A DNA stretch of 19,693 nt, taken from contig JAYENX010000007.1 in the NCBI GenBank assembly GCA_034722435.1, positions 1 through 19,693 on the forward strand, in the 5' to 3' direction. Positions 1 to 19,693 of the stretch are shown here, piece after piece (within the stretch, counting starts at the first letter, position 1; every line of letters begins with the position of its first letter). Position numbers and translations under genes: made by a program. The notes beneath the pieces were generated by a model, which did no database searches, was not told the DNA's origin, and saw only the letters and a program-made list of their open reading frames with translations. This stretch comes from Nanobdellota archaeon. GTDB lineage: Archaea > Nanobdellota > Nanobdellia > Woesearchaeales > JAHWHD01.

Positions 1-800
1 GAAGCTGGTGTATCTGTTAAGGTATCAAAGGTTGTAGAACCATTAATAGTCACAGTTGTTGTATCACTTCCATTATCAGTTACTTCTACACCATCTCCTA
101 CAAAATTTAAGTTATCTCTTTGTGTAAGTGGAGTTCCCTCATCTTGAATAGTATGTCCTCCACCACTACCTGCAATAGACACTGAACCATCTGAATTAAC
201 AGTTACTGACCCATTAGCAAATTTAAGAGTGTTAGTGGTTGCTACTGGTGAGCCATCTTCTTCTGTAATGTTCAGTCTTGTTGATCCTCCACCAAACAAA
301 CTTGTTCCTTGTTTTTTCTTAATATCTTTTTCAAGCTTTTTCAATATTTTATCTAAACCACGAATAGCAGATTTGTCAAGCTTTTCATCTTCATCTTTTA
401 TAGATTCCAATTTATCTCTGATTTTTTCTGGTGTATCTAAAATGATTTCTTCATTCTCTGGTATCCTTGATAATACTTCTTCTATTATGTGTTCCTCATC
501 AGCATCAAGTCCATCAATTCCACCTTCCCCTTTGTCTCCTTTTAGTCCTTGAACTCCAGTTTCTCCTTGTTCTCCTTGTTCTCCTTGGATACCTTGTTCC
601 CCTTGGATACCTTGTTCTCCTTGTTCTCCTTTTTCTCCTTTAACGAAATCAACATCTCTAAAGTCTATATCACGAACTGACTCCTTGATTTCATCAGCTG
701 AATCTTCTATATCTGAAAGAACTGTCATTATAACTGCATCTTTACTTGAAGCAGTCTTATCATTCATTAGAATGTCTTGTATATTTCTTTTATTTTTCAT
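1..800 (-). CDS. Collagen-repeat tail fibre-like structural protein (partial, runs off left edge)
   Basis: Open frame from ATG at 800 to the window edge, absent from the ORF track: MKNKRNIQDILMND...GEKGEQGEQGIQGEQ...GGGHTIQDEGTPLTQRDNLNFVGDGVEVTDNGSDTTTVTING. It has 15 Gly-X-Y triplets, then a Thr/Gly/Asp-rich beta-type segment, and follows the ejection genes. Confidence 0.75.
   Translation of the reverse strand, partial: MKNKRNIQDILMNDKTASSKDAVIMTVLSDIEDSADEIKESVRDIDFRDVDFVKGEKGEQGEQGIQGEQGIQGEQGEQGETGVQGLKGDKGEGGIDGLDADEEHIIEEVLSRIPENEEIILDTPEKIRDKLESIKDEDEKLDKSAIRGLDKILKKLEKDIKKKQGTSLFGGGSTRLNITEEDGSPVATTNTLKFANGSVTVNSDGSVSIAGSGGGHTIQDEGTPLTQRDNLNFVGDGVEVTDNGSDTTTVTINGSTTFDTLTDTPA
504..638 (-). 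repeat. Collagen Gly-X-Y tandem repeat (15 triplets, 9-bp unit)
   Basis: GEK GEQ GEQ GIQ GEQ GIQ GEQ GEQ GET GVQ GLK GDK GEG GID GLD; the plus strand shows repeated TCCTTGTTC units. Confidence 0.9.
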
Positions 801-996: not shown

Positions 997-2682
997 TTAA
1001 TCTTGTGATTGCTCTGACACTCATTCCAGTAGTATCCCTTTTGTAACAGGGTCTGCTTTTTCCAGTGTCGCAATAAATTTTACAGCTTGTGTTTTAGTAA
1101 TCCCAGTTAATGCAGTTAGTTCTCCAACCATTTTAGGTGATATTACTATTTGTGACAATCCCCTAACCAAATCTCCAATACTTGCAGTGGACCTAGACAC
1201 CCCTTCTGATAAAAGCCTACCTGCCTCTTGCCCAATAATATCTTTTCCACCAACTATTTCTTTTTCTAGCATTTCAATCCCAGTTCCTTTCTCACCAGAA
1301 AAAATATTACTTATTTTCTTTTCAACTTTAATCCTTTCTGCTGTAGAGATACCACCCTTAGCCCCAAATTCTTGCTTCATCACATCTAAAATATCCATTG
1401 ATGTAGCATACTTTTTATTTATATCCTTAACTTGAGGTACTTTTTTTGATAAATAATCAAGTATATTTTTTGAGGTTCTGTCAATAATTGAATTAAGCTC
1501 ACTTGTTTGTGTTGCTGTTCTGAAATTTTTAATTTTTCTTGTTAGCATTAGCAACCCCTCTGGTGTTGTGTCATCTCATTTGTTAATAGCATCAAAAACA
1601 TCATCCAATCTTTTTGCTTCGATATTGTCTAATGGGGAATATTTTGTATTTAATTTTCCTCCATCCATTGTGACTTTGAAATCATCAAGTGTTTTTGATA
1701 AGTTCTCTAAAATTCCTTTTGTTGTTATTGTTGTTTTTTTACCCTCTTGGCTTATAACTTGAGTTGCTCCATTCTTGAATTTTTTAAATTTCACTGGTAA
1801 CTTATCTACAGCCTCCCTGTATTCTTTCCCCGCATTACTTCTTAATGTTTTTACACCTTTTTGAATATCTTTAGCCTGACTTGTTAAACTAGTTTCACCC
1901 CTCAATCCTTTTAATGCTGCAACAGGGTTTTTTAATATCGAATCTATTACAGCAGTTCCTTTCCCTGAAAACACACCTGCAGTTGATTTCAAAATTCTGC
2001 CACCTGTATCTGCTATTTTACTTATCACTGGTTTAGCAACTGCTCCAACAATAGGTAATGCACCTGCTATACCACCAACTGTTGCAACTTCTTCATTTAA
2101 TTCTCCTTGTCTTGCTGTTTCAACTGCTCCATATCCTAATGCCTCAGTTCCAGCTCTACCGAGTAATCCCCTTGTCTTTGAGAGAGTTTTACCCGCTCCA
2201 GCTACTTTACTTACAGCTGTCGCTCCTTTAGTGATAGCTCCAGCTGGTGCTAAGAAAGTAGCAATATCCCCAACAGCTCCTCCTATTTGTTGACCTGCAC
2301 CTTCTCTTTTTAGTGCTTCTTCAGAAAACACCCTATCTCCAAATATTCTCTCAACATTTTTTTTCCCTATTCTTTTTCCTCTTTCATATGCCTCCCCAAA
2401 AGACTCTTCACCCCCTAATGAGCGAGGTACAGCCATTATTCCTGCTCCTAGTTTTCCAAAAAGAGAACCAACACCTTTTACTAAACCAATTTCAGATTTA
2501 GCCAGTCCAAGCCTTATATCTTCAAACAAACTCTCTCCTTTTACAGATTTATCTATTTCTTTTTTTGAATATTTTTGTTTAAAATCATTGACAACAAATT
2601 GGATATTCTCTTGGCTCTCTTTGTTAGTTGTCATTTGTTTTACAATATTATCTAATTTTTGTCTATCTTGTTCTTGTAACAT
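997..2682 (-). CDS. Internal virion (ejection-type) protein, 561 aa with TGA=Trp
   Basis: Track ORFs 1576..2682 and 1021..1554 are in one frame. Reading through TGA at 1576 and 1021 reaches TAA at 997. Ala/Gly-rich amphipathic central region (FLAPAGAITKGATAVSKVAGAG) and position after the nozzle fit podovirus ejection proteins. Confidence 0.7.
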
Positions 2683-2687
2683 ATTTT

Positions 2688-4757
2688 TTAGTAATTATAT
2701 TTTGTTCTTAAATTTTCTTGACCTGATGATTCACCCCCCATACCACTTAATCCTAATAATTCGTCTGCTGTACCTTTTATTTCTATATATATATTTTCCA
2801 TACCACTCACATCTCTTCCTAGTTTTGCACTTAGCCTTAATTTGTTTTCCAATGACCTTTGTATTGAACGAATTGTAATACCCAACACAGCCTTATTTAC
2901 ATCATTTGTTGATGTTAAATTAGGTAATGTTTTAGAATATATTTCAATATCTTTATCTGTTAGAACTCCAACTTCACCATAAATACCCCTGGCTAAATTG
3001 GGAACGATAGCAGATAATTGTGTCTTTACTATTTGTGACTTCTCTGCATAAGGGTTATTGCTTGTTATAGTTCCTCAAATAGGTCCAGTTGCAAGACTCT
3101 TTATATTGTTTTGCAAGTCTGATACTTGGTATAGTGTGTTTAAACCTTTTTCAAAAGAATTTATGAATGTGTCACTAACATCTTTCCCCCCTGCACTTGC
3201 TTTTAATATCCCTATAAAATCCCCTTTTTTTAGTGCTTCATCTTTTAATTTGTTTAATTCTTGGTCTACCCTACTTCTTAGATTATCTTTTACTGATATA
3301 TCTGTTAGTTTTTGTGTACTACCATCAGCCATTATTGATTTTGCTATTGTAAGTTCCTCACTGTCAGATGCCTCTTCTAAAAAATTCTTATAACTTCCAT
3401 TTGTGAAAGCCCCTCAAGGTTTAAATGAACCACCAGCTTCATCATACACTTTTCTTGCTATATCAATATTTGATTTTCAATCATTAACATCTAAATCTCC
3501 AATTTTATCTTTATGTACAGCAGTATTTATTTGGAAGATTCCATGACTCCCTTCTGGTGCTAGTTTATTATTTTTATCTCCATGAGCATCAATTTTTAGA
3601 TTACTTTCCCCCATGGCTATTGCTAATGCAACATCTGGATTTTCTGGGAACATCTTTATAATATATTCAGCTATCTCTCTTTCTTCAGTTGAAAAATTAT
3701 TTAAAGTTGTTGTTTTAAATAATTCAGTACCAGTAAGACCCTTAGATTCATTAAGTGCTGTTTTTATTTCTATACTCTCTTCAGTAGACATGTAAGGTAA
3801 TGCCAACATTAGTGCTTCACCCATATTCTCTGCTTTATATATTTTATCAATAACATTAGCAGGTGCTTGCTGAAGTCTTGCAACCTCTAAAGCTAGTGTC
3901 CCTATCTTATTCCTCTCTTCTTTTTGTAATGCAATATTTTCATCTTCTCTTTCTAACATAGTAAATGCTAGACTTAATTCTTTATCTTTTCTTCCAGTCT
4001 TTCTTTCAGTTTCTTCATTAAGTCATTCAAGTTGTTGTTTTTGTGCTGTAAGCATATCAGCTCTATCAGCAAATTCATATTCCACAGCTTGATTAACTTG
4101 CTCTAATGCCCCCTGATAATCTCCTTGTGTTGCTAGTAAGTCTGCTGCTGCATATCTTTTATCAATACCAATTCTTCTTGCTCTCCTTGTTGACTCTCCT
4201 TGATAAGCAGATGTAGTTCTCAATCCTCTTCCTTCAGATTCCTCTTGTCTCATTTGGTCATAAAGAGTATCTTCTTCAGCTTGCAATCTTTCTAACTTTC
4301 CAGATGCGGCAGTCATAGCTTCTCTTTTAGTACCAAGACCAGCTTCATCTCCAAGACTTGCTAATAAATCTGCTCTACCTCCTTGTCCTTGCAAAGCAGT
4401 TACAATCCCTTGCTGTCTTTCTCTTTCTAGTGTAGTTACTTCATCTTGTTTGTAAAAGTCTTGTGCTGTTTTGAGTAGATTATTAAAATCTGGAGTCTTT
4501 CTCATTGTTGGCTCTGGTGCTGTTGGTAGTCCTGACATGTCAGGTACATTTCCTAGCTCATTTACATCCATACTATTATTTTGTTTTGAAAAAGCACCGA
4601 TAGTATTCTTACCGATTATTCCATCAACTGTCAAGTTATTTTTTGTTTGGAAATCTCTTACTGCTTTATCTGTTTGCTTTCCAAAAATACCATCAGCAGT
4701 TATTCCCAGCTTTTCTTGATACTGTTTTAGGTCATCACCTGTATATCCTTGTTTCAT
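2688..4757 (-). CDS. Internal virion (ejection-type) protein with N-terminal peptidoglycan-binding domain and internal lytic transglycosylase/lysozyme-like domain, 689 aa with TGA=Trp
   Basis: Four track ORFs join through 4 TGA codons. N-terminus G..GDDLKQYQEKLGITADGIFGKQTDKAVRDFQTKNNLTVDGIIGKNT matches PG_binding_1. ALAIAMGES...SHGIFQIN...WKSNIDIARKVYDEAGGSFKPWGAF matches SLT/lysozyme-like motifs (putative catalytic Glu at 3606-3608). Confidence 0.8.
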
Positions 4758-4758
4758 T

Positions 4759-4914
4759 CTATATATTTTTTATTAGGTATTCTTTTGTAGAGATTAAATC
4801 ATCCCCATAAGTTTCTTTTAATATTTCCTCGACATAGTTTTTTAAGTCGAGATTTTTTTTACTTAACTCTTCCTTGACAGCTTCTCTTATTTCTTTTTTA
4901 ATTTCTTCATTCAT
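4759..4914 (-). CDS. Small hypothetical protein (51 aa)
   Basis: MNEEIKKEIREAVKEELSKK...KNI. The start at 4914 lies 1 nt after the upstream TAA; TAG stop 1 nt before the next ATG. Confidence 0.6.
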   Translation of the reverse strand: MNEEIKKEIREAVKEELSKKNLDLKNYVEEILKETYGDDLISTKEYLIKNI

Positions 4915-4915
4915 A

Positions 4916-6400
4916 TTAATCATCTTCTTTAACTTCATATTCAAATTTTGCACTAGTAATATTCAATCCTCTTTTTGAAGTTATTTTGAACTGTATTTCT
5001 TTGTATTCTGGAAGAGATTGTCCAGAAGTAAATCTCTGAACTTTTCTATCATCTTCTCCATCTACATCAATATCATAAGTTAAAATCTTGGATCAAGAAG
5101 CTACTTCATCATCGTGGCTATCTATATTGCTTGGGTCAATTGTCCTATAATAAACATTTGCTTCCTCTTCACCAAAGTCTGTGAGATTAGTTTTTGTAAA
5201 AGATAGAGTAAAACTCCTTAATTCTTTTGTTACACTTGTGTCTCCAAAGTATGAAGTGATGTATTCAGAATCTACTGTAAAATCAGAATAATCACTATAT
5301 CCATCATGGAGTTGTGCTAGTTTATAATTGTTATCTTTATCTCTATATCCAGCAACTAAAATTCCATGATATTCATTCACTGTGTAGAATTTCCCATCAC
5401 CCATTTCCATATCTCCTGTAACCCCTACAACTGATACTTCTCCTAGATGATTTATTTGATAAATCCCATTATATGCTACTTCTTCCCCTAGTCCTAAATA
5501 CAAGTTAATGCCATCAGTATATGTATTTCATCTTGCCTCTGCACTACCCCAAGCATCATCTATATTTTTTAATCTATTTAAAACATTGAAATATGAGCCA
5601 TTAAATTGTTTAATTCATGTAAACCCTTCGTTCTCTTTACTGTTTTTGCTTTTTATGTTTTGAACTATAACTGTGATTGCTTCATTAAGCACTGCTGCCC
5701 CTATAAAGAACCCATACCCTAAAGATATAGTTTTCTCAAAGGTTGCTGGTTCATTGATAACATCATATAAGAACATTCTTGTTTCTCCAGTAGCTTCCAC
5801 TTCAGCAAAAATAGCCATGAAACCTTTATACTCAATCATCTTTTTATACTCGTGTCCTTGAGGTAAGGTTTTTAATGAAGCACTAAATGTTGTTCCATCT
5901 TGTTTATATAAGTTATATCCTGATATATAATAAAGATTATCTGTTGATGTATTGTATCCCATCAAGTATTCTCCACCTGATGCAAATGATGTATCCACAT
6001 TTGCTGTAAAAACTTTTGTTCCAGTAACAAACTTAAATACATCTCCTGAACCCTCTTCTATACCATAAATACAGTTCTCAACTCCATCATGGTAGAACAA
6101 TGCATCTCCTAAATCTTCTGCAGTATCACGAGACTCAACCCCTGTTGTAATTCCAAAAGAGTTTCCTGTTGTAACTTCAGAGAACATAATATCATAAGTA
6201 TCATCTTCCCCTATAATTCATAAACCATCTCCTTGAATAAATTTTTGTGGATGGTATCCATTAGAAGTTGTAAGTGTCTCCATATCTGCCACAGGGAATA
6301 ATCCTTTTTTGTCAAGTCATTTACTTCTTAATTGAGCAAACCTTGTGTCTCTTTCATCACAAGACATTGATTTTTTAAAATCTATTTCTTTAATTGTCAT
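4916..6400 (-). CDS. Putative tail nozzle / tail tubular protein B-like, 494 aa with TGA=Trp
   Basis: Continuous frame from ATG 6400 through 5 TGA codons to TAA 4916. Aromatic/Gly-rich beta-strand composition; lies directly after the adaptor gene. The function is inferred from synteny. Confidence 0.6.
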
Positions 6401-6402
6401 TG

Positions 6403-7101
6403 TTATTTTGCATTTACTCTCTTTCCTCTCATTATGCTTTTTACATTATCAAGACCTTTAAGATACATCTCTAAAGCTTTTTCTGTCTCGAGTTTCTCCA
6501 TTTTAAGAGTATTTACTCTGTCTTGTTTGTAAATAGAACAATAAGCAAGGGAAGCTTCTATTGATAATAATGTGTGTGCTAGTCTTGGAATTTGTGGCTC
6601 TGCTGTTGTGTCTGTTGAATCGAAAAGTGTAGTTCTTTTTATATCGTAGATTCTTAAACCATCTGTTTTAGTATAGTTGGGAGTAGGATATAATGTTGCT
6701 GAATCACCTTCTATTGAGATATATCTTGGAATACCACCATCATCGTTAAAAAATTCTTGTACCGCACTACTAATTTGTTCCTTTTCAATTAATTTAAGGT
6801 TTGTTCAAACCCCATTTTCATCTTTCACTTCTGCTCTTCTAAAGTGATTGACTTCTGTAATTGGAACAAGATTAACACCATCTGCTAAATTATAATCAGC
6901 TAGGTTATATGGTGCTGTTGTGTTTGTGTCTGCTGGTTTAATCTTTCCAGAGTTCAAGATGATAAAGTTAATAACCTTATCATAGGAATTGTTTAAATTC
7001 CTTGTCTTATCCTTAATAGGATATTTGTTATCATTAGTTGAACACCTGAAATCTATATCTTGTATTAAACCTTGTAGATTTATTGTGTCTGAAAATTGCA
7101 T
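6403..7101 (-). CDS. Head-tail adaptor / tail tubular protein A-like, 232 aa with TGA=Trp
   Basis: Track ORF 6805..7101 extends through one TGA to TAA 6403. Contains G.PRYISIEGDSATLYPTP and EPQIPRLAHTLLSIEAS, patterns typical of podovirus adaptor proteins. Confidence 0.65.
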
Positions 7102-7102
7102 A

Positions 7103-7486
7103 TTATTTAGTGTTTTTTAATGCTTCTAAAAATTCATGCCCTGCTTTTTCTTTCACATCTGTAAATATAGCTACAATCTCTCCATCTTTTATTGTGATTT
7201 CCTCTAGGACTTCAAATTTAGAAGATTGTTCTTTCTTTTCAATCTTTTCTAATAATGGTACTACATCTTTTTTAACTTCATTAAAGTTTTGAGCAGTTTG
7301 TTTTATAGTGTTAGTTAGTTGCTGATTTTCCTCCATCAACTTTTCTGACATATCTTTTAGTTTTTCATTATTATCCTCTATTTTTTTAGTAATCTCTTTT
7401 GCTTTTACCAAATAAGCTTCTTTCTTTTCTATATATGGTTTTAATTTGTCATCTTTTACAATAACTTCTCTTGTATATTCTTTCAT
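7103..7486 (-). CDS. Hypothetical coiled-coil protein (127 aa)
   Basis: Complete ORF with TAA stop, Lys/Glu-rich heptad-like segment, coupled to the adaptor gene by a TAATATG junction. Confidence 0.75.
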   Translation of the reverse strand: MKEYTREVIVKDDKLKPYIEKKEAYLVKAKEITKKIEDNNEKLKDMSEKLMEENQQLTNTIKQTAQNFNEVKKDVVPLLEKIEKKEQSSKFEVLEEITIKDGEIVAIFTDVKEKAGHEFLEALKNTK

Positions 7487-7495
7487 ATGATTTAT

Positions 7496-7654
7496 TTAGT
7501 TAATTTCTCCATTAATTCTTCTCTCTTTTCATTTTTTCATTACCTCTGCTCTTGAGCTACCTGTTATTTTAAACCCATCTTTATCAATCATGTCTATTTT
7601 TTTGATTGGGTTAGGATCAATAGCTATTTGTGTTTTTTTGTTATCTGCTGTCAT
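7496..7654 (-). CDS. Small hypothetical protein (52 aa, one TGA=Trp)
   Basis: MTADNKKTQIAIDPNPIKKIDMIDKDGFKITGSSRAEVMKKWKERINGEIN, TAA stop; fills the gap after the capsid terminator. Confidence 0.55.
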
Positions 7655-7659
7655 GTTAT

Positions 7660-7691
7660 ATATAAATTATACTGGATAATAACCAGTATAA
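7660..7691 (-). terminator. Probable intrinsic terminator after the major capsid gene
   Basis: Perfect 9-bp inverted repeat TTATACTGG (7667-7675) / CCAGTATAA (7683-7691) with a 7-nt loop and a weak T-rich tail on the minus strand, 30 nt after the capsid stop. Confidence 0.6.
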
Positions 7692-7721
7692 ACAACCAAG
7701 TTTTGATTGTTAAACTAGCGA

Positions 7722-8618
7722 TTATGCTACTACTGATAGAATTTCAATTCCTGCATCTGCTCTGTTTACTACAACACCATATTTGATGTCTGATACAACT
7801 AGTTCCCCAAGGTATTCTAATTGGTAAGCTGATTGCATTCTAACTCCTGGTGTTCCATTTGCATCTACAAATGCTCCTGGTAGAGCTGCTGTTGCAAAGT
7901 GGATAGCATCTTTGTGTAGTAATGCTCCTGAAAAATCAGTTCCATCATCTGACACTGAGTTAGATTCAATAACATCTATGTTATAAATTCTTCCAACTCC
8001 TCCATTGTTTTTTGTTCCATCTTGCCCAAAGTCTCCTGAAACAAATCTATCTGAAGTCATTAAGTCTTCTCAAATTTGTTTTGGTGAAAGCACGAATGCT
8101 ACATCTTTGTTATTAAATGAACCTTTAACTGCTTGTTTTAATTTTGAAACAGCTGTTCTCAATGTAACATCTGATAAGTCTGTTCCAGTTGTTCCTACAG
8201 TAAGTGTAAATGAGCTAAATAATGCTGCTAAAGCATTTTCTAAGTCTTCTGCTACTGCATAACCTGCATCTTTCATTCTTCTTTCTTGGAATACATATGA
8301 AGCTTTCACTGCTGCCTTGTCTGTATCTTCAAGAACAAATGATGATTCTTTATGTGTATTAATGTTTAAAGTAATTGCTGTTTCAGTTGGGCTTTGTAAA
8401 GTAACTTGTGTTCCTGCTGCTTTTGTGTTTGTTGCAAAAGCAGTTGTGCTTGGAGTGTAAAGTACATCTCCTCCATTTGCTACCTCATCTGACCTATCTG
8501 TTACTAATCCTGCAATTCTTAAGTTTTCTCTGTAGAAGTCATTTACTGATGCTCCTCAGATTTCTGGTGTAAATACTGCAACGTCTACTGCTGTATAGTG
8601 GTTTGTTCCTAATGCCAT
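7722..8618 (-). CDS. Major capsid protein (P22-coat-like), 298 aa with TGA=Trp
   Basis: MALGTNHYTAVDVAVFTPEIW(TGA)GASV...GDVLYTP...ITLNINTHKESSFVLED...AGYAVAEDLE...GRIYNIDVIESN...SDIKYGV. The FxPE[IL]W and G..G.I.G/N..V..SN motifs fit this family; the gene follows a scaffold gene. Confidence 0.88.
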
Positions 8619-8660
8619 ATTATTTTTTGTTTAAAATTTGTTAATATGACAACACCTATA

Positions 8661-9230
8661 TTATTGCTGTGCTTTTCAAAGAGCCTTTCTTTCAGCATCT
8701 GTAAGACCTGAACTTTGCAGTGTCTTTTTTTGTTTTGCTGTTGAACCTCTACTAACTCCTAATTGGGCTTTTTTATTTTTATCCTCTTGGAGCTTAGTCT
8801 CTTTTCAAGTTTTAAAGTAACTTGATTTGTAAGCTTCGTCTAATGAAGTCCCTTCGATTTTAGCAATCTGAATAACTTTATCTACTGCATCGTCTTCAAA
8901 TTCAGAAGGTATATCTTGTGAATTAAATATTTTTGAGTAGAGTTTTCCTTCTTCCCTTGATAATGCATTTGTAGATTCAGTGTTGTCTTGTTTTGTCTTC
9001 ACTCACTTTCCCTCTACTTTTGTGTATCCTTCTCTTTTAAGAACTCTGTTTTGAATGGCTAACTCTTTCTTAAGGTTGTTACCTTTGTTAACACTTACTT
9101 CCTCTTTTTGTTCTTCCACCTCTCCTTCGATGTCTTCATTTTGTTCCTCTTCATAAGAATCAATATTAAGTTCATCTGTGTTATTTATTTCCTCAAAGTT
9201 TGTTTCTTCGGTATTGTTTAATTTTGTCAT
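8661..9230 (-). CDS. Capsid scaffolding protein, 189 aa with TGA=Trp
   Basis: Two track ORFs join through TGA at 9003, 8805 and 8676 to TAA 8661. Very acidic N-terminus and basic C-terminus; lies directly upstream of the capsid gene. Confidence 0.75.
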
Positions 9231-9286
9231 AGTTATTTTCTAGTTATTTAATTCACTTTTGTCATGGGAGTGATAACCCGTGTTAA

Positions 9287-9511
9287 TTATATTCCTCTTG
9301 ATTTAGTCTTCCTGTCTTTTTTTGGCTCAAACTTATCGTTCAAAGATTTAAACCCTGAAGCAAGTAAGTCTGCTGATAATTTATAATGTGCAGTTTCTTT
9401 TCCAGAGTATACATCTTCTAAAGCTTTTCTATTATTATGCTCTATTAAGAATGATACCAATGATTCCTGCATCTTTTTATCATTATAAAATTCTTTTAGT
9501 TTCTCTTCCAT
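9287..9511 (-). CDS. Small hypothetical protein between portal and scaffold (74 aa)
   Basis: Complete ORF with TAA stop and a TAATATG junction with the portal gene. Confidence 0.7.
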   Translation of the reverse strand: MEEKLKEFYNDKKMQESLVSFLIEHNNRKALEDVYSGKETAHYKLSADLLASGFKSLNDKFEPKKDRKTKSRGI

Positions 9512-9512
9512 A

Positions 9513-11237
9513 TTATTGTTGTCCTTGTGGTAGTGATTGCTCTATAGTTGCCTGTGTTTGTGTTTGATTACCTTGAGTATCAACTGTTCCAGTAGTTGCT
9601 CCACCACTAACACCAAATGTTGCTGATGATATACCTTGTACCTCCATCATTTCATTTATAAGTGTTTGTCTTTGTGGGTCACCTGGTTGTAATAATTGTA
9701 ACTGTGATGCTAGTGCATCTAATTTTCTCTGTCCATTAGTTTGTTCATCTGTTACATTAAAGAATCCTTTTTTTGTTATCTTTTCCATAGTGATGTACTC
9801 TTTTGGAATTGTTAGTTTTCTTTCACTACCTTGTTTTTCTAACTCTTTAGCTTTCATCTCCTCTATGTTAGATAAGTCATCTGCTGTAATTGCACCCTTA
9901 CCATTCATATTACCAATATTACTTAATATTCTTTCCTTGACAAACTCCCCTTTTGCTTTGTTGATAATATCTTCATCAATTAATCTTAACTCTCTTGGTG
10001 AGTATGAGGCTGTTAGCTCATGCTCTTGATTAATCTTTTTAATTAAGTCTGGCATAATTCAATCCACTAGGACTTCTCTTAAATTGAATCCATCATCATC
10101 TCTTCTCTTATTAAAGATTGACCCCGCTTGTGCTGCTTGTAAAGCTTGTGAAGCAAATGGTGTTCCAGCTTTTGCTTCTTCACCAGTTACAGCATTAAAA
10201 GCTGATTGGTCTCTTTGTAAGTTTTCAAATCAATTATCAATTGAAGCTTGGTACTGTACTAGCCCACCTGATGGCATTAAGCTCATTGGTTCAACATACT
10301 CATCATTCTCAAGATAAATCATTTCCCCATTCACAATAGCTTTGGCATCTGGTAGGTTTTGTTTGTTAGTCTTCATCACAACCTTACCTGACAAACTCCT
10401 TGCTTCACTTTCCTCAATCACTGCTTCGTTGATGGCAATTTGTGCTTCAAATGCTTCTTCTCACACACCAAGTCCTCAATCAATACCTTCAACTTCTTTT
10501 CTCTTAAAGAATTTGTATCTTGTTTCTGTTAAGTCTTGTTCATGTAGTAAAAATCATTCTCCATGCACTGTTGCTACAATAATGTTTTTTAATATCATTG
10601 AATCTTCATTCTCTTCATCAAAATACTCTGATGGGAATCAACCTTCAATGTCATAAACTTTTATACCTTCTCAAATCTGTTTTGTCTGTGAGTGTTTTAC
10701 AATCACTTCATCAACTTCATCTCAGCCCTTTCCCCTCATTTCTAATGGTGATAATTCATGCTCTTCAATCTTTATCCCATTTAAAATATCTTTTGGATTT
10801 ACTTTAATAAAATTTCAATTAACAATATCAATCTCGTTAGTCTTCTTCAACATTACATTTCCATACTCGCTCTTTTTTCTTTGGAACTTGTCTATAAATT
10901 CTCCTCAATTATTTTCTTTCATTCATTGCTGAATTTCTTTATTAATAATCATTGAGAATACATAGTCTGAATCAGTTGCTTGATATTCAATATTCTTTCT
11001 ATCTAAATTTTTAGCTCTTCATTCAAGGTCTACGAGTGCATTTCCTACATTCCTAAACCTATATGTGTTACCATCCTCATCCTTACCTCCATCAGTGTAT
11101 TTACTTAATACATAATGTGTTATCTGTGAGATTTTTTCTCCTAGATTAAAATCAATATCTCCAACAATCTTTATAGGATTGTTTTCATATGATTTTATAA
11201 GACCTTCTATGTGTCCTCTTATTTTTGTATCTAACAT
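9513..11237 (-). CDS. Portal protein, 574 aa with TGA=Trp
   Basis: Track ORFs 11019..11237, 10230..10421 and 9513..10055 share a frame, and 11 in-frame TGA codons link them. Size, position after terL, the IDWGLGVWEEAFEAQIAIN segment and the Gln-rich tail fit podovirus portals. Confidence 0.85.
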
Positions 11238-11247
11238 ATATATTTAT

Positions 11248-11276
11248 ATTATAACATTAAATTCCTTTTTTTACAA
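11248..11276 (-). promoter_or_regulatory. Sigma70-type promoter upstream of the portal gene
   Basis: TTGTAA (11276-11271), 17-nt spacer ending ATGT, TATAAT (11253-11248), i.e. an extended TGn -10. It overlaps the terL stop codon. Confidence 0.65.
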
Positions 11277-12771
11277 ACTTTCTAATTTTCATATTATTGT
11301 TGCTAATAAGTCCTGAAGTTACTTCCCCATTATTCACCCCAGTCTTTAATAAATCGAAGTAAGCTCTGAATAAGAATGTATCTCATATATCAGGACTTCT
11401 CCCTAAATATCCCTTCACAGTTTCCTCACTTTTGTTATTACTATCCTTTGGGATTAAGGCTAGCTTTTTATCATCTCCTTGTTGTTTCTGCCTCATAACA
11501 GCCAAGGCTTCTTCAACGATGACTTCCTTTTCTAATGCTGTTGCTGTTATAGATATTTTTCTATCCTCTATCATTTCAGCCAACTTAAATCCAGCTTGTG
11601 ACTTTAAGTTACTGAAGTTTACTACTGTGGTATCTATCCCAGGAACAATTTGTCTTCTGATTGTTTTAGCTTTTAAAGCTGATGAGTTGTTAACGAATGA
11701 CTTACAACCTTTTAAGAAGTCTGATACTCCACCACCCACACCATCATCATCAACAACGACATGACTTCTTGGTATTTTAAATTCTACTTCTAATTCCCTT
11801 GCATCTTGAACTGTTCTGTCAATTCCTTGTTTCTCTTTAACAACTCTTTTAATACTATGTCATCCTTTTCATACATTAAAAACTATTCTATCCCCACCAT
11901 ACCTTGCAACATCTATAGTTAAGTACATATCGTTACTCTCAATTATACTGTTTGTAAACATATCTTCAACTGCATCAAGTGATACAAGCATATTAGTTAC
12001 ATCATCATAGTCTCAATCTCCATCTCTTAGCCTTCTCTTTGTTTTTTCATCTACAATACCATCAAGCTGTGCCTTGTAACTTTTAGCAACATAAGGATTT
12101 TCACTGTATAGTACTGGAACATAAGCCACACTGCTATCAAGCTCCCCTTTTGTATATGGTATATGGAAGAATCTTTTAATCCAAGTTGAGCTGGGGTTAA
12201 AAGTACAGAGTGTTTTAGGTTTTATCTCAATAATGTTTGGATACTTCTCTGGGGATGTTTCATAATCCTTTGGTGGTTGCACCATTATATTTAATTCAGT
12301 ATCAAATAAGTTGTGTCTACCAGTCCTAGTCTTTAATACATCAAAGGCTTGAAAGTGGGTTTCCCCAGCTTCTTCAATAGCCCCCCTTGTATATTCAAGT
12401 GAACCGAACCTTTCGTACTCTGCATCAGTTGGCTTAAATGCAATATCAAGTAAATCAATAGTTGAGCCATTCTTAAACTTAATTATATTATACTTACCAT
12501 CTAGCTTTCAATCACTCTCTGGAATATTATGGTGTTTACATACTTTGTTCCAAGTAACATAGGTTGAAGCCATTAGTCTTTTTAACTCGTTCCTTGCTAT
12601 ATAACCACGATAGCCTGGAAACCTATAGGCATATATTAATTGGTCTTCACATATGAGTCAAGATTTACCTCCACCAGCACCTCCACCAAAGCCCACTATT
12701 TTTGTATGGTCATCATTAAGGTAGCCTCAAGCTATGTCTTGTTTTATTGTTGGTGTTAATGTTATTTCCAT
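11257..12771 (-). CDS. terL: Terminase large subunit, 504 aa with TGA=Trp
   Basis: Walker A GFGGGAGGGKSW, ARNELKRL, Walker B GAIEEAGE, CTFNP, LRDGDWDY, nuclease motifs TIDVARYGGD, VVDDDGVGGGV and GRSPDIWD. Seven in-frame TGA codons. Confidence 0.95.
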
Positions 12772-12777
12772 AATTTA

Positions 12778-13176
12778 TTAATCTTTATCGTTTGGTTTTA
12801 TATAATTAATTGATACAACAGTATTAAGCTCTGCTCCATCTTTACCAGATAGTTCTGTCTTTGTCAAGGCTTTACCATCCATCCTATCTAAGTATGAGTT
12901 CACAGCACCTAGCTTGACAGAATTGTTTTCTTCCATTGAAGTTAGAGCTTTTAATTCAGTAACTACACCATCATAAATTCTCTTATTTTCGATATAATCC
13001 ATTACTAATCTATTACTCTCTAAAGAATCAATTGTCTCTGATATTGATTCTTCCATATTCAAATCATAAATAACTTTTATTTCACCTCTTACAAATTGGT
13101 AATCTTTATTTATTGATAACACAGATAGTCTTTGTTTATCAGATAGTCTTTCTAATTTTTTTTCTAAACTTTCCAT
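12778..13176 (-). CDS. terS: Probable terminase small subunit (132 aa)
   Basis: Directly upstream of terL. C-terminal DRMDGKALTKTELSGKDGAEL pattern is typical of TerS proteins. Confidence 0.7.
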   Translation of the reverse strand: MESLEKKLERLSDKQRLSVLSINKDYQFVRGEIKVIYDLNMEESISETIDSLESNRLVMDYIENKRIYDGVVTELKALTSMEENNSVKLGAVNSYLDRMDGKALTKTELSGKDGAELNTVVSINYIKPNDKD

Positions 13177-13182
13177 AGCTTT

Positions 13183-13211
13183 ATTATAACATAATTAGTA
13201 TACCTTTACAA
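13183..13211 (-). promoter_or_regulatory. Sigma70-type promoter of the morphogenesis operon
   Basis: TTGTAA (13211-13206), 17-nt spacer ending ATGT, TATAAT (13188-13183), 6 nt before the terS ATG. Confidence 0.7.
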
Positions 13212-13227
13212 CACTAAAATCCAAAAG

Positions 13228-13557
13228 GTTACATTTGATTTGAAAAGTCTTTTGAGAAATATACAAATATATATATATTATTACTCTCTATTATATATAA
13301 AAAAAGTGTAACTTTGTAACCTTTTTAGCTTAGACCTTATAAAATAAGGGCTTCCGAGGTTACAAAAAAGTTACAAAAAGGTTACAAAGTTACAGAAAAC
13401 AGCCCTTTTTCACCCATTTTTCGGTTTTTTTACTCTACAACAACACACTTTAAGGTACTTGTAAATATTGAAAAAAGCAAAAAAACCAAAGGTTACAAAA
13501 AGTAATGTAACCTTTTATCCACAGTTTTTCTTGCATTTTGTAACCGACTATGTTACA
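13228..13557. repeat. Probable replication origin: 11 GTTACA/TGTAAC repeats in both orientations, an AT-rich tract and a central hairpin
   Basis: GTTACA at 13228, 13359, 13370, 13381, 13389, 13492, 13552; TGTAAC at 13307, 13315, 13506, 13539. CCTTAT-aaa-ATAAGG at 13335-13349; AT-rich run about 13261-13305; next to the primase-helicase gene. Confidence 0.7.
13515..13523 (+). promoter_or_regulatory. Consensus DnaA box
   Basis: Exact TTATCCACA, 7 nt upstream of the -35 of the rep promoter. Confidence 0.6.
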
Positions 13558-13559
13558 CT
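13531..13559 (+). promoter_or_regulatory. Sigma70-type promoter of the replication gene
   Basis: TTGCAT (13531-13536), 17 nt, TACACT (13554-13559) with an extended TGn element; overlaps two GTTACA repeats. Confidence 0.55.
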
Positions 13560-13661
13560 GATTGTATCAATGAGTTTAAAAATTTTAACGACTAAATTTT
13601 ACTTCTCTAAGTACTCATTGATTAAAAGGCTTAGGGAGGTAGAATTTAGTTTTTATTTATT

Positions 13662-15827
13662 ATGAATCAAAATCAACTTAAAGCATTAGAATATTGAGAT
13701 GAAGGATACTCTGTTTTTCCTTTGAAAATCTCATATAATAATGGAGATAAAAAACTATCATTTGTTAATGGAAGTTGAAAGAAGTATCAAGAAAAAAGAA
13801 TGTCAGAAGAAGAAGTTGAGAGAGCTTTTAGTGATCCAACATTATCTATAGGTATTGTAACTGGTAAGATTTCAAATCTTACTGTTATAGATATAGATAA
13901 GAATGAGCAAGGGAAGTTAAATGCTAACCCATCAGATTTTCCTGATACTCACACAGTTGAGACACAATCAGGTGGAGTCCATTTATACTATAAGTATACT
14001 GACAATATAAAACAAACACAGAATCTTAAAGTCCCAAACATTGGGGAGGTAGATATTAGAAGTGATGGAGGATTTGTAGTAGCACCAAATGGAGATGACA
14101 GATATAATACCAAAGACAACCAGCAACCAATAGATGCACCAGACCACTTATTTCAAACACAGAGTCCATCAGGAACTTTTAAACATACTACCATTGATGA
14201 TGTAATATATGTTTCAGAACACCCAGAGTTACATTCAAGAAATATAACAGTTTTCAACTACTTCTTGACAGAATTAAAACAAACTGCTACTGCTGATGAG
14301 TTCCAAGGTATCTATGAAAACTTAGTCTTCGCTACTAATGATATTCAATCGAGAGAGAAAATAGATAATATCAAAAAGACTTTTGAATCTGCTAAAAAGA
14401 TTATCCTTAAAGATAGAGAGGGTCAATCACAAAATGATATTAAAAAGGAAGCAACTAAAATGTCAGCTTCAAAAGTGAAAGCATACTTTGAGAGAGTAGA
14501 GGAATACTTTGTAAGAGAGAATGATAAGTATGTAGTATATGTTAAAGGAGATAATATAGAAGAGATATATAAATGAAGTGAAAAAGGACTTTATGAAAAA
14601 CAATCAAAGACACAAGTTAAAGCTGATATATCTACTTTCTTGAAAGAGAAGAATCTGTTTCAATATAATAAAGATAATTTTCACAATGAAATATACAACA
14701 GATTAATCACACACTTGTCAACCTTACCTAATAAAAGATTTACTGAGGTATCTGAAAAAATAAATGTACAAAATGGATTCTTTGATTTAGAGACAAGAAC
14801 TTTGATACCACACAGCAAAGATATTTTCACAGTTAACCAACTGAATTTGGCATATTACCCAGAAGAAACTGAGATGCCTATCTTTCAGAAGTATCTTGAT
14901 GTAATCGAGCAAGACTCTGATGGTCTATCTCAAATGTTACAAGAGTTAGCTGGGTATGTATTGCAAGAAGGTAATGCAAGGCAAGTAGTGCACTTTCTCT
15001 ATGGTGCGACTGGAGACAATGGTAAGTCTGTTTTTTGAAAGATTTTAGCAGAATTATTAGGACATAACAATGTATCTTTTGTTAAATTGGATTCATTCAA
15101 GTCCTCCTCTGACTTTGCACTTGAAGGATTAGCAGATAAAAAATTAAATGTTTCAGATGAAACAAATAGGAGTTATATTGATTCACCAGTATACACTGAG
15201 GCAACATCAGAAGGAACAATTAAGTTGAATAAAAAACATGGTGGAATGTATGATTACACAGTAAAAGCAAACTTTATAATCGTGGGTAACTTCTACCCAA
15301 AATTCAAAGATGCAACTGGTATGCAAAGGAGAGTTGTAGTTGTACCATTCAATCATAAGCTCAAACCAGAAGAAAAGATCTTGAATATTGAGAGAAGAAT
15401 AGCAGAGAAAGAATTATCTGCTATCTTTAACTGAGCTTTAAAAGGTATATTGATGGAGAGCAATTCATTCTTCTTATCAGAGCAATCAAAAGCTGGAACA
15501 CTTGAGTTTGAAGCTATCATCAATCCAGTTAAGGATTTTGTGGAGACTTCTTGTATCTATGATGAAGATGCTTGAATTAGTCCAAAAGAATTATATGGGA
15601 ACACAGAGTTTAGGAGTGAAACAGGTTACAACTTATTTATTAAAGAGAACAATAAAAAGCCTTTAGATTTTAGAAATTTCTCATCAGAGTTTAGAACATT
15701 AACTCAACAACATAAACTTCCTGGGTATGTTGAGTGGGGGGTGGTTAAAAAAGTAGATGGAAAAACAATGAGAGGTGTTAAAGGAATTAAATTATTAGCA
15801 GAATACAATGGAGAGGTTAACTTTTAA
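13662..15827 (+). CDS. Bifunctional primase-polymerase (Prim-Pol) fused to a P4/D5-type SF3 helicase, 721 aa with TGA=Trp
   Basis: ALEYWDEGYSVFPL...SWKKYQ, VIDID, TQSGGVHLYY, VDIRSDGGFVVAP (Prim-Pol). GATGDNGKS (Walker A), KLNVSDE (Walker B), NFIIVGN (motif C), MQRR and IFNWALKG (SF3). Six in-frame TGA codons; TAA at 15825. Confidence 0.93.
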
Positions 15828-16332: not shown

Positions 16333-16866
16333 ATGGAAAATATAGTTACATTAGCAAAAAAAGGAATAAATTACAAAGCAAAAAAAGAACAACTTAAGAA
16401 AATAGAATTTAAAAAAGTAGATGGCATCTGATATGGTTATGCTACAGATGGATATATTATGTTTGAAGTAAAAGCGGGTAGTATATCGTTTAAAGATAAA
16501 ACCCTGGAAAAGTTTTATATTGATGCCGTTGATATAAAAGATATAAGAATTAAAAAGAATGACATTGTTATTAGTGAAATAGATACAGAAAAAGGTATAT
16601 TACTTCTAATTGTAGAAGATAAAAAATACAATATATCAATAAAAAAAGAATGTCCAGGATTCCCCGACCTTGACGAAATAATAAACACCCGCGAAGATGT
16701 AAAAGAAACAACTTCTAAAAATTCTTTTAATTATGAGTATATAAAAAAAGCGGGTGAAATTCTGACTGATAAAACAAATGAAATAAATATACAATTTTAC
16801 AAAGGAAAACACCCATCAATTATAACGGGAAAAAATGGGGCTGCTTGGTTGATGTCAACAATATAA
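16333..16866 (+). CDS. Shortened DNA sliding clamp (DnaN/beta)-like protein, 177 aa with TGA=Trp
   Basis: Start extends to ATG 16333 through one TGA. YATDGYIM, GFPDLDEII, SFNYEYIKKA, INIQF..KHPSII and AAWLMST parallel the beta-clamp motifs VATDGHRL, GRFPDY..V, GFN..Y..D and AYVVMP, in the same order. Confidence 0.55.
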
Positions 16867-16884: not shown

Positions 16885-16918
16885 AAAGCATTTAACAATT
16901 TAGAATTAAATGCTTTTT
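16885..16918 (+). terminator. Terminator-like hairpin
   Basis: Perfect 11-bp inverted repeat AAAGCATTTAA (16885-16895) / TTAAATGCTTT (16906-16916) ending in a T run. Confidence 0.55.
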
Positions 16919-16930
16919 AATAATATAAAT

Positions 16931-17293
16931 ATGAATAAAAATATAATACTAACACTAACAGTGGCCGGAGTGGTTGCAATAACATCTCATTTATACATAA
17001 ACAATGAGTTAAAAGAACTAAATAACATTTTAACAATTAAAGAGAATACTATCACAAGCTTAACATCTTACAATAAAGATTTAAGAGATAGCAACAACGA
17101 ATTAAAAGCACAGAATGATGACATTCTGAAAAGCCTTGAATTTGAAATATCAGAAAGCAAAAGATTAAACGAAGAAGCAATACAAAGTGAGGAAGACATG
17201 GTAGCAATGGGGGAGAAATTTATTTCTTTTATTGAAAAAATAAATGTTGATACATTAAGGAGATTAGAAGCAATTGAATATTTAACTAAATAA
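16931..17293 (+). CDS. Hypothetical protein with N-terminal membrane anchor/signal and coiled coil (120 aa)
   Basis: MNKNIILTLTVAGVVAITSHLYI hydrophobic stretch followed by heptad repeats. ATG 16931 is preferred because ATG 16910 lies inside the hairpin. Confidence 0.75.
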   Translation: MNKNIILTLTVAGVVAITSHLYINNELKELNNILTIKENTITSLTSYNKDLRDSNNELKAQNDDILKSLEFEISESKRLNEEAIQSEEDMVAMGEKFISFIEKINVDTLRRLEAIEYLTK

Positions 17294-17538: not shown

Positions 17539-17658
17539 ATGAAAAAAACACAAAGCCCTGAGAAGCGAAATGTTCCTAACAAGACTAATGATAACAAAAA
17601 AGTGCTTTTATGTCAATGACTTGAAAGCCATCCACCTTATCTTCTGGCGAGAGGGTAA
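17539..17658 (+). CDS. Possible small hypothetical protein (39 aa)
   Basis: MKKTQSPEKRNVPNKTNDNKKVLLCQWLESHPPYLLARG. The start is coupled by TAATATG, but the 3' half overlaps a structured element. Confidence 0.35.
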
Positions 17659-17742
17659 GATAAGACCGAAACTGTCTTAAAACTAATTATAAAGTCATAT
17701 CTCCAAATAAAAAGATAAAGAGATAGATTAATAAAAAAAATT

Positions 17743-18090
17743 ATGACAGATATTTTTAACGAGGCAAACAAGCCAGAATCAAACTGATTCAAATTTAATA
17801 AAGTAGGTGATTCAGTATCAGGTAAATTAGTAGAAAGAAGACATCAAGAAGGACAAGGAAATTTCCCAGCACAAGAAGTGTATGTTCTTAAAAAAGATGA
17901 TGGAGAAGATGTTAATGTAGGAATTTCAATAAATAAAAGCTATGTAGTCTCAAGAGCAAATAAAGCAGAGGTGGGAGACACATTAGGATTTAAATTTGAA
18001 AAAGAAGTTCCATCAGCAACAAAAGGAAATGCACCAGCTAAATCTATTGAAGTGTATCTTGTAAAAGGTGAAGAAGGAATAGACTTCTAA
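17743..18090 (+). CDS. Probable single-stranded DNA-binding (OB-fold) protein, 115 aa with TGA=Trp
   Basis: MTDIFNEANKPESNWFKFNKVGDSVSGKLVERR...EVYVLKKDDGEDVNVG...GDTLGFKFEKE...EEGIDF. The beta-rich pattern and acidic C-terminus ending in Phe fit an SSB, and it lies in the replication/recombination module. Confidence 0.55.
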
Positions 18091-18180
18091 CATCAACTCC
18101 TTGAATGAGTATAAACTTACCATTTTTATATTATTATAAGACTATTTTGTATATACTTTACAGATTTTGTAAGCAATACT

Positions 18181-18277
18181 TTGATGGTGTTGTGATGAGA
18201 ATATTCAAGGTAAAAGGAATCCCTAATACATTGCAAGTTAAAACCTTGTTCTCATCACAATGCTATTAACTTTAGCA
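18181..18277 (+). ncRNA. Structured intergenic RNA element, copy 1
   Basis: TTGATGGTGTTGTGATGAGAA (18181-18201) pairs with TTCTCATCACAATGCTATTAA (18249-18269): 21 bp with 4 G-U and no mismatch. CAAGGT/ACCTTG extends the stem after a TATT bulge. Confidence 0.6.
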
Positions 18278-18295
18278 GATTAATAATAAAATAAT

Positions 18296-18994
18296 ATGGA
18301 ATTAATAAAAGGAAAAGAATACAAGACAAAAAAAGAGAATAAAATTTACACAGGATATTATACAGGTATTGAAACAACAAACGGCTTTCTTTTCGAGCTT
18401 TCAGATGACCCATCAAAAGGTTGAGATAGGGATACTTTGGTTCCAAAAGATTGAGTATCAATTGGAGATGATAAATACTGATGATTTGATGAAGATGATA
18501 AATTTGAGGAGGTTAGTCGGGAATCCCAACACCCCACTCTTATGACAACAAAGGAATTTACGGGTAGTGTATATGAAGCAATGGGGGGGGGAGAAATTAA
18601 TGAACCACAAGCAGATGTTAGTGTCATTGAAAGGGTAAGGGAAGCTATTAGTAAGTTGGGATTCCAGGGGGGTGAAGAGGAGGAGTTTAATAAATATGTA
18701 AAAAAAGCATGAGAAGAGCCTGAATGCAATCCCCTAATAGAATTTAAAACTAGGAGTGTGTGAAAAGAAGAAATTAATAACAATAAAAATATGACAATAA
18801 AACAAACATTTAAAAAATTAACAATGAGTAAAGCAGATAAAAACCTTATCAAAGCTGGAGTTGTTAATGATGAATTAGAATTAACAAATAGTGGAAGAGA
18901 TTTAGTGGTTGACTTAATGTTCAACAATAAAGATATTAAGGCTGAAATTGCTAAGATGGCAGAGGCTATTGTTAAAGAACAAGAAGACTGTTAA
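18296..18994 (+). CDS. Hypothetical protein, 232 aa with six TGA=Trp
   Basis: Open from ATG 18296 to TAA 18994 with no TAA or TAG, including a TGA-TGA pair (YWWF). The in-frame ATG at 18791 has its own A-rich start context. Confidence 0.65.
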
Positions 18995-18995
18995 G

Positions 18996-19100
18996 ATTGG
19001 TGGTGTTGTCAAGGGAAAGAACTTGAATAAGTTGGATTGTGAGAGCTAACTCCTAAGGTAGAACTCAGTAATCCCCCTTGACAATGCTCCTAATAGCATT
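18996..19100 (+). ncRNA. Structured intergenic RNA element, copy 2
   Basis: ATTGGTGGTGTTGTCAAGGG (18996-19015) pairs with CCCTTGACAATGCTCCTAAT (19075-19094): 19 of 20 pairs including G-U. It encloses hairpins at 19020-19033 and 19034-19074. Confidence 0.6.
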
Positions 19101-19107
19101 AATTATT

Positions 19108-19693
19108 ATGAAATTATACAAATCAAGAGCATCTGGAGTTGGGCATTTATTTACCCAGCCCAAATTAAAGAAGGACAGGGGGGAACTATCCCAGACAGCG
19201 AAGTCAGCATTAGAACACTGACTAAAAGAAAAGATATATAAAAGAAAGTTTGAGTTTTCTAATAAGTATACCGAGAATGGTATCACACAAGAAGATGAGA
19301 ATATAGATTACCTTGAAGCCAATTCAGAATACAAGAACTTAAAGAAGAATGAAGAACACTTTGAAAATGAATGAGTCACAGGGACACCTGACCTCTTGAC
19401 AGATGACAAGGTAATAGATATAAAATCATCTTTTAGTGGGGATACATTCCCTCTCTTTGATACAGAGATAACTAATAAATTATATATCTACCAATTACAA
19501 GCTTATATGTATCTTACTGGAAAGAGAAAAGCAGAGTTGGTCTATGTATTGGGTAACACAGCAGAGGAAGTTATTTTAAAAGAGTTCAACTATTCTGATA
19601 GTGAAGACTATGAGGAATTTAAGAAACAATATATCTATGATGGTATAGATTCAAAATACAGAATCAAAAGATTTGAGGTTGAATACGACCCAG
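19108..19693 (+). CDS. YqaJ/lambda-exonuclease-like PD-(D/E)XK nuclease (partial, runs off right edge)
   Basis: KSRASGVGHLFT...FSNKYTENGITQE...KNEEHFENEWVTGTPDLLTDDKVIDIKSS...YQLQAYMYLTGKRKAELVY; two in-frame TGA codons. Confidence 0.85.

Follow-up and report, generated by a model that had tools for sequence, protein, structure and literature searches.

What kind of cell reads a phage genome in which TGA stands for tryptophan and one gene product is directed against a cell wall? The question is raised by a stretch of 19,693 bases (hereafter the window), which is the entire contig C7 of a 1.30-Mb, 60-contig, 94.5%-complete archaeal assembly (GCA_034722435.1). The contig is part of the genome of a podovirus-like tailed bacteriophage. 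We find that TGA is an ordinary tryptophan codon in this phage, and that the domains of a 689-amino-acid (aa) protein support a murein-walled bacterium as its host. That this host natively reads TGA as tryptophan is plausible, if unproven, and we give it a little under an even chance.

The reading of TGA

How is TGA read in this phage? Under the standard bacterial code (code 11) the contig yields only short open reading frames (ORFs). With TGA as sense it yields genes of 561, 689, 494, 574, 504 and 721 aa, the ORF cover increasing from 0.47 to 1.06. We aligned the major capsid protein (MCP), the terminase large subunit (TerL) and the scaffold and portal candidates with their standard-code relatives. 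Tryptophan faces 23 of the 36 aligned TGA sites, and glycine faces none; code 25, in which TGA encodes glycine, is rejected for that reason. The window genes contain 53 TGA against 5 TGG codons, the TGAs being spread over 17 of the 22 tabulated genes, and all 16 complete genes stop at TAA. The initial annotation had described a code-4 phage with a host distinct from the code-25 Gracilibacteria and Absconditabacteria. That the phage is code-4, and so distinct from the phages of those bacteria, stands: the genes are whole only with TGA as sense, TGA aligns with tryptophan, and TAA is the only stop. Nor are the TGAs assembly errors, since the TGA-bearing genes recur in a Logan assembly made independently from run SRR26901924, with protein products identical to those of the window.

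Is the recoding a matter of late genes? The initial annotation held that it is not, and its counts for the primase (six TGA) and the exonuclease (two) are correct. The density of TGA is equal across the modules, at 11.1 per 1000 codons in replication genes and 8.9 in structural genes (p=0.47, small ORFs counted), as is the ratio of TGA to TGG. The base 3' of TGA matches the background (p=0.97), with no bias to leaky contexts. In the primase, the first of the rightward genes, the earliest TGA is codon 12.

A wall-directed protein and its place in the genome

If the genome is read in this way, what does the 689-aa protein do? Its N-terminal PG_binding_1 domain (PF01471, E=3.5e-12) is followed by a long helical middle and an SLT_3 lytic-transglycosylase domain (PF18896, E=1.1e-7). 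Both scores exceed the Pfam cut-offs, that for PF18896 being 32.6 bits against a cut-off of 27 bits; a peptidoglycan-binding domain and a lytic transglycosylase are thus encoded, as had been claimed. We aligned the SLT domain in four diverged sequences: the window protein, two of its homologues, and an SLT_3 protein that stands alone in a relative. All four keep the catalytic Glu-Ser (E384-S385), G406, Q409-I410-N411 and W448 unchanged, and in the window the codon of W448 is TGA. We conclude that the protein is a predicted GH23/SLT lytic transglycosylase with intact motifs. PG_binding_1 is absent from its closest homologues. The predicted structure has a mean pLDDT (predicted local distance difference test) of 51, and Foldseek gave no significant match to it. 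In the relatives the homologous gene is preceded by that of an SU10-type adaptor and by one or two other tail genes. For this reason we read the protein as putatively carried in the virion, where it would open the wall or serve ejection, and not as a classical endolysin. As the muralytic domains are not degenerate, the virus appears to be built for a murein-walled host.

Might the domains instead be relics, in a phage of a wall-less Mollicute? Among code-4 groups the Mycoplasmatales are much larger than any other (PMC13695967), and the window shares their low G+C content (GC) and their strong preference for TGA over TGG. Against relics stand the Glu-Ser pair and the downstream motifs, invariant in four diverged sequences, and a strong PG_binding_1 match. 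The relatives of the phage were sampled in lakes, brines, groundwater and sediments rather than in animal or plant hosts, and no phage of Mycoplasma or Spiroplasma is among the matches. We regard a Mollicute host as very improbable. The premise of the initial annotation, which started from the lack of peptidoglycan in the best-known code-4 bacteria, is itself outdated: walled code-4 bacteria, Patescibacteria (Minisyncoccia) included, were reported in 2026 (PMC13092985, PMC13695967), and walled code-4 Eggerthellaceae have been described (PMC13462651).

Where does the 689-aa protein lie in the genome? With TGA as sense, the contig resolves into two divergent modules, a leftward structural one (minus strand) and a rightward replication one (plus strand). 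Its main features are listed here; L015 and L019 are metagenomic relatives considered below, and percentages are identities.

3..800, minus strand: collagen-repeat tail fibre, its ORF running off the contig; no TGA; matches to Pfam Collagen (E=6.5e-8) and to numerous tail-fibre families of PHROGs.
997..2682, minus strand: 561-aa structural-module protein; 2 TGA; whole only with TGA as sense; same gene in the Logan assembly; no family match.
2688..4757, minus strand: the 689-aa muralytic protein (PG_binding_1 and SLT_3, matches as above); 4 TGA.
4916..6400, minus strand: 494-aa tail candidate, possibly a nozzle; 5 TGA; placed after the adaptor gene, like the ~500-aa genes of relatives; no family match.
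6403..7101, minus strand: 232-aa head-tail adaptor candidate; 1 TGA; 25-32% to the genes of relatives.
7722..8618, minus strand: HK97-type MCP; 2 TGA, both facing tryptophan in relatives; phrog_267 E=7e-24; 82% to the L015 copy.
8661..9230, minus strand: 189-aa scaffold candidate, between the portal candidate and the MCP; 3 TGA, all facing tryptophan in L015; 54% to the L015 copy.
9513..11237, minus strand: 574-aa portal candidate, by size and by position between TerL and scaffold/MCP; 12 TGA; no profile match.
11257..12771, minus strand: TerL; 7 TGA; phrog_2 E=4e-21; 39-46% to the copies of IMG/VR relatives.
12778..13176, minus strand: 132-aa first gene of the leftward operon, by position possibly the small terminase; no TGA; 34% to the L015 copy.
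13177..13661, no strand: divergent control region, candidate origin or operator; at least nine (A)AAGGTTACA motifs in both orientations.
13662..15827, plus strand: replication protein with PrimPol, D5_N and SF3 helicase parts (the primase); 6 TGA, the first at codon 12; PF09250, PF08706, PF19263; phrog_1156 E=1.5e-56.
16333..16866, plus strand: RusA-like resolvase candidate; 1 TGA; phrog_3007 E=1.6e-6 is the sole support.
18296..18994, plus strand: 232-aa replication-module protein; 6 TGA; whole only with TGA as sense; no family match.
19078..19692, plus strand: PD-(D/E)XK-type exonuclease, cut by the contig end; 2 TGA; phrog_5715 E=4e-42; full length in relatives 224-234 aa.

Several of these assignments draw on the relatives. 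The adaptor candidate (6403..7101) has no direct Pfam match of its own; genes of the same size and position in two relatives match PF24175 (SU10_adaptor). PF25209 was matched on the Logan gene identical to the window MCP. The portal candidate has syntenic homologues in L015 (62%) and L019 (28%); seven of its TGA sites face tryptophan in L015, and one faces a TGA of L015's own. Small ORFs are also present in the rightward replication module. The labels 'clamp-like' and 'SSB-like', which the initial annotation had given to two genes, found no backing in Pfam or PHROGs. A 127-aa protein of the replication module (16910-17293, no TGA), with a weak match to a PHROG 'endolysin' family (phrog_25820, E=8e-6) and weak, coiled-coil-like Pfam matches, might be a lysis or accessory protein.

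The modules diverge from a 485-bp intergenic region, where (A)AAGGTTACA(AA) occurs in at least nine copies, including perfect 20-nt inverted arms. The repeats form the families D1-D8 and the inverted pairs I2, I6, I12, I14, I15 and I17, and the motif is concentrated there. This cluster is probably an origin or a set of operators. A TGTTATAAT box ends 6 nt upstream of the ATG of the 132-aa gene.

How much of the phage genome does the contig represent? It is cut within genes on both sides: its left end falls in the collagen fibre gene, its right end in that of the exonuclease, and we found no terminal overlap of the two. Since longer contigs of relatives span 26-39 kb, C7 may make up between half and two thirds of the genome.

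The host and the origin of the recoding

Does the phage belong to the archaeon in whose assembly it was found, either infecting it or being physically carried with it? Bin membership itself would suggest so, as would the tetranucleotide profile of C7, which lies inside the spread of the bin (fourth of 42 contigs, about 1.5 SD). It was this similar composition that placed the contig in the bin. C7 is the sole recoded contig, every other contig of the assembly being densely coding under code 11. In the archaeon TGA terminates 158 of 585 long ORFs (27%). Archaeal aRF1-type genes are present, no bacterial RF-1/RF-2 domain was found in the assembly, and none of its 15 detectable tRNAs, most of which have introns, carries a UCA anticodon. 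(At C13:7566-9132 and C59:9940-11773 of the archaeal contigs, ARAGORN reported introns of ~1.5-1.7 kb in a tRNA-Gln and a tRNA-Lys.) Neither a penicillin-binding-protein transpeptidase nor a Mur ligase was found in the assembly. C7 and the other contigs have no protein in common, and no significant short DNA match, spacer or CRISPR array was found. The phage, for its part, encodes a RusA-like protein and domains directed at murein, and has relatives among bacterial phages.

Among 400 genomes of the archaeon's order just one has even a distant, non-recoded portal-like gene. A related fragment in another metagenome-assembled genome (MAG) of that order does speak for the association. It is a 3.3-kb standard-code piece (L018, G006:C21:1-3322) with a portal-like gene 24-26% identical and an MCP start 45% identical over 75 aa, and is probably another mis-binned low-GC phage contig. 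An archaeal host is rejected on the code, on the murein genes not found, on the want of common genes or spacers and on the lack of recurrence in the 400 genomes of the order; that the virus truly belongs with the bin is extremely improbable. On sequence grounds C7 is best read as a bacteriophage contig mis-binned with a standard-code DPANN archaeon.

If not from the archaeon, from what lineage does the phage come? In IMG/VR and public metagenomes we found ~60 related loci, from lakes, brines, groundwater and sediments, whose MCPs are 38-45% identical to that of the window and whose gene order is the same. These relatives use the standard code; their conserved genes have no in-frame stops, and TGA makes up 13.5% of their stops. 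A scan of IMG/VR with the window primase returned distant matches only, and the truncated exonuclease as query found no relative above 81% identity. Nearer relatives from other samples form a recoded clade in which TGA is tryptophan and in no member a stop. The recoded members and one standard-code relative compare with the window as follows.

L096 and L097: exonuclease 69% and g17743 82% identical; in-frame TGA against TGG 9 to 2 and 8 to 1, respectively.
L092: primase 55% identical; in-frame TGA against TGG 11 to 10.
L015 (the same as L020): MCP 82% and portal candidate 62% identical; one TGA, in the portal-like gene, tryptophan being otherwise TGG.
L091 (ENA ERZ23498475, ZHAN22-2 scaffold_1601): primase 41% identical; standard code, with 49 TGG, no in-frame TGA, and TGA as 3 of 18 stops.

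The lone in-frame TGA of L015 (IMGVR_UViG_3300028030_000184, Ga0256831_1006241) lies near 3253-3255, at a site that is also TGA in the window. The genome of L015 thus avoids TGA, even as a stop, yet needs one TGA to be read. L091 also carries a gene for an RtcB RNA ligase and a free-standing 144-aa SLT_3 protein.

How, then, is TGA translated in the infected cell? In the explanation that we prefer, TGA would be read by the host's own translation system, the host being a bacterium with tRNA-Trp(UCA) and without release factor 2 (RF2). No release factor would then compete at the TGA at codon 12 in early genes or at the 12 TGAs of the portal candidate. The phage would attack a murein-walled bacterium with the SLT transglycosylase in its virion tail or ejection module, and the enzyme would probably open the wall during DNA entry. 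The uniform, context-unbiased recoding, which reaches the first codons of early genes, favours such a native code-4 host, and the TGA avoidance of L015 resembles that of the 'dual-compatible' phages of TGA-recoded bacteria in the Candidate Phyla Radiation, or CPR (PMC10746230). Which bacteria might these hosts be? The best candidates, we infer, are the newly found code-4 Minisyncoccia of the Patescibacteria. Patescibacteria and Actinomycetota have walls. In the code-4 Minisyncoccia (family JAKLIH01, genus GCA-2747955) all members lack prfB and most have tRNA-Trp(UCA) (PMC13092985, PMC13695967). We consider it unlikely, at the present evidence, that the clade comprises the first recognised viruses of these bacteria, a lineage that would have followed its host through a code change from the standard-code relatives via the TGA-avoiding L015 to the fully TGA=Trp window.

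The phage may instead recode itself on a standard-code walled host, for example a Flavobacteriia-like member of the Bacteroidota, by means of a tRNA-Trp(UCA) or other TGA-reading device in that part of its genome which the contig lacks. Such a device, transcribed early, would read TGA against the RF2 of the host, as has been proposed for gut code-4 phages. This is a serious possibility, falling rather short of an even chance. The recoding is evidently derived, given the ~60 standard-code relatives and the gradient of in-frame TGAs (0, 1, 11 and 53) in the nearer ones. Precedent is well documented and includes small recoded clades of 22-34 kb; a suppressor tRNA is detectable in just 35% of those code-4 phages (10.1101/2021.08.26.457843). 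Set against this, the replication genes of the window are as dense in TGA as the late genes, with a TGA at codon 12, and in the described cases replication genes stay standard-code. The 12 TGAs of the portal candidate would demand near-complete suppression, leaky TGA contexts are not favoured, and none of five recoded fragments has a tRNA.

Is there machinery for a code switch in the sequence at hand? No tRNA was found in the 19.7-kb contig by ARAGORN or Rfam, a permissive threshold included, and no release factor or tryptophanyl-tRNA synthetase was matched by Pfam or PHROGs among its 18 longest ORFs. The initial annotation's remark that the window holds neither tRNA nor release factor is thereby upheld, for a window that is the whole of an incomplete contig. 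In ~18 kb of other clade fragments there is likewise no tRNA, and no recoded fragment examined has a code-switch gene. Searches of public records for exact copies of the window proteins recovered the virus from just three short Logan contigs, all of SRR26901924 and none extending past the window; for three genes towards the right end of C7 there was no record.

A number of observations weigh against a native code-4 host. The incomplete ends of the contig are one, and the missing tRNA is not conclusive because C7 is truncated in genes at both ends. L091 has, at 17597-18285, a compact array made up of nine tRNAs (Pro, Met, Glu, Arg, Ala, Gln, Trp-CCA, Leu and Gly) ~3.2 kb downstream of the exonuclease, that is, just past the cut, in the region missing from the window. 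The tRNA-Trp(CCA) is found in more distant relatives as well, and such arrays in standard-code relatives are among the points in favour of self-recoding. Code-4 phages on standard-code hosts are documented, most of them with no detectable suppressor tRNA (10.1101/2021.08.26.457843). The one family member with a Patescibacterial placement, L019, lies on a contig of 21 kb in a Candidatus Parcubacteria MAG; two genes of this MAG have an RF-1 domain, as would fit a standard-code cell with both RF1 and RF2, and the placement of L019 there is a binning result only. A search with the MCP through 400 genomes of this MAG's class (Minisyncoccia) gave just four distant, non-recoded matches. Whole-window DNA against 400 genomes of the phylum Patescibacteria gave short, chance-level matches, with a CRISPR-like array at none of the ten best loci. 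No spacer, prophage or co-abundance data linking the phage to a host were obtained. Finally, when TerL was compared with cultured phages, 17 of the 24 matching records were Bacteroidota phages, at 25-36% identity (eight of them full-length, at 33-36%), and the best matches of the exonuclease were Nonlabens phages, at 38%. Bacteroidota phages are thus the nearest cultured-phage homologues of both proteins, in a database that holds no CPR phages and in a comparison biased to that extent. We know of no CPR phage in culture. The Bacteroidota are a standard-code phylum, without Shine-Dalgarno (SD) motifs, that is known for recoded phages.

Do gene starts or promoters tell the hosts apart? The starts of the phage are A-rich and without SD. 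The initial annotation had taken this as a pointer to a CPR host, which it is not: Bacteroidota genes are also SD-poor, so that the feature is not specific to CPR and fits a self-recoding phage of Bacteroidota too. SD-less starts are rejected as a host marker, since the genes of the Parcubacteria MAG are SD-poor too. The genes of that MAG, the one that holds L019, share with the phage both SD-poor starts and a TATAAT close to the ATG. Of 13 genes examined in the Candidatus Parcubacteria MAG GFS_112 (G401; L102-L104), four lack an SD motif and show an extended -10 box (TGnTAtAAT) whose end lies 5-8 nt upstream of the ATG, which suggests leaderless or near-leaderless mRNAs. A Bacteroidota-type promoter (TTTG/TAnnTTTG) is missing from the intergenic regions of the window, and a canonical TGnTATAAT box heads the late operon, which is weak evidence against a Bacteroidota host. 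Compared with shuffled sequence, neither motif shows enrichment; all that is suggestive is where two extended -10 boxes of the phage lie.

A walled host that natively reads TGA as tryptophan had been called the simplest inference. The wall has held up, with the SLT motifs intact; 'simplest' has not, given an incomplete contig and the code-4 phages known from standard-code walled hosts.

Comparison with known systems

What would follow from each reading? If the host natively reads TGA as tryptophan, the clade would be a handle on the ecology and evolution of walled code-4 bacteria and a natural series of the adaptation of a phage lineage to a change in the code of its host. If the phage recodes itself, it would be an unusually complete non-gut case, with suppression needed from the first early codons, and would challenge the idea that recoding chiefly times late genes. 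As matters stand, a GTDB species-representative archaeal MAG holds a foreign, differently coded phage contig, which could mislead DPANN virus-host or genetic-code annotation.

Podoviruses carry virion-associated lytic transglycosylases, such as the SLT domain of T7 gp16. The 689-aa protein resembles proteins of the gp16 type in having an SLT domain with the catalytic Glu-Ser, in being large and mostly helical, and in being encoded in a tail or ejection module, following the adaptor and a tail gene of ~500 aa. It differs in that its SLT domain is central rather than N-terminal and in its additional N-terminal PG_binding_1 domain; neither by sequence nor by fold was it matched to gp16.

Like the window, the code-4 phages of standard-code hosts (Jade, Sapphire and Agate clades; 10.1101/2021.08.26.457843) have in-frame TGA as tryptophan, have lost TGA as a stop and are low in GC. 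They too have close standard-code relatives and tRNA arrays in the wider family, and mostly no detectable suppressor tRNA. In those phages, however, the recoding is concentrated in late and lysis genes, whereas in the window it is uniform, extending to replication genes and to the opening codons of early ones. The window differs also in its aquatic or saline, non-gut source and its small, podovirus-like genome.

The phages of TGA-recoded CPR bacteria (PMC10746230) share with the window a density of in-frame TGA in all genes. Their sister phages avoid TGA both as stop and as sense, and it is these 'dual-compatible' phages that L015 resembles. Unlike the recoded CPR phages, the window has TGA facing tryptophan and never glycine (code 4, not 25), and no spacer link to a CPR host was found. 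The walled code-4 bacteria (JAKLIH01, GCA-2747955 and Eggerthellaceae) are cellular lineages of the kind predicted for the host, with TGA as tryptophan, prfB lost and, mostly, tRNA-Trp(UCA); phages of the code-4 Minisyncoccia or Eggerthellaceae did not turn up in literature searches. Code-4 phages and walled code-4 bacteria, then, are already known. What is unusual here is uniform recoding in a small, non-gut, podovirus-like phage, together with a natural series of relatives.

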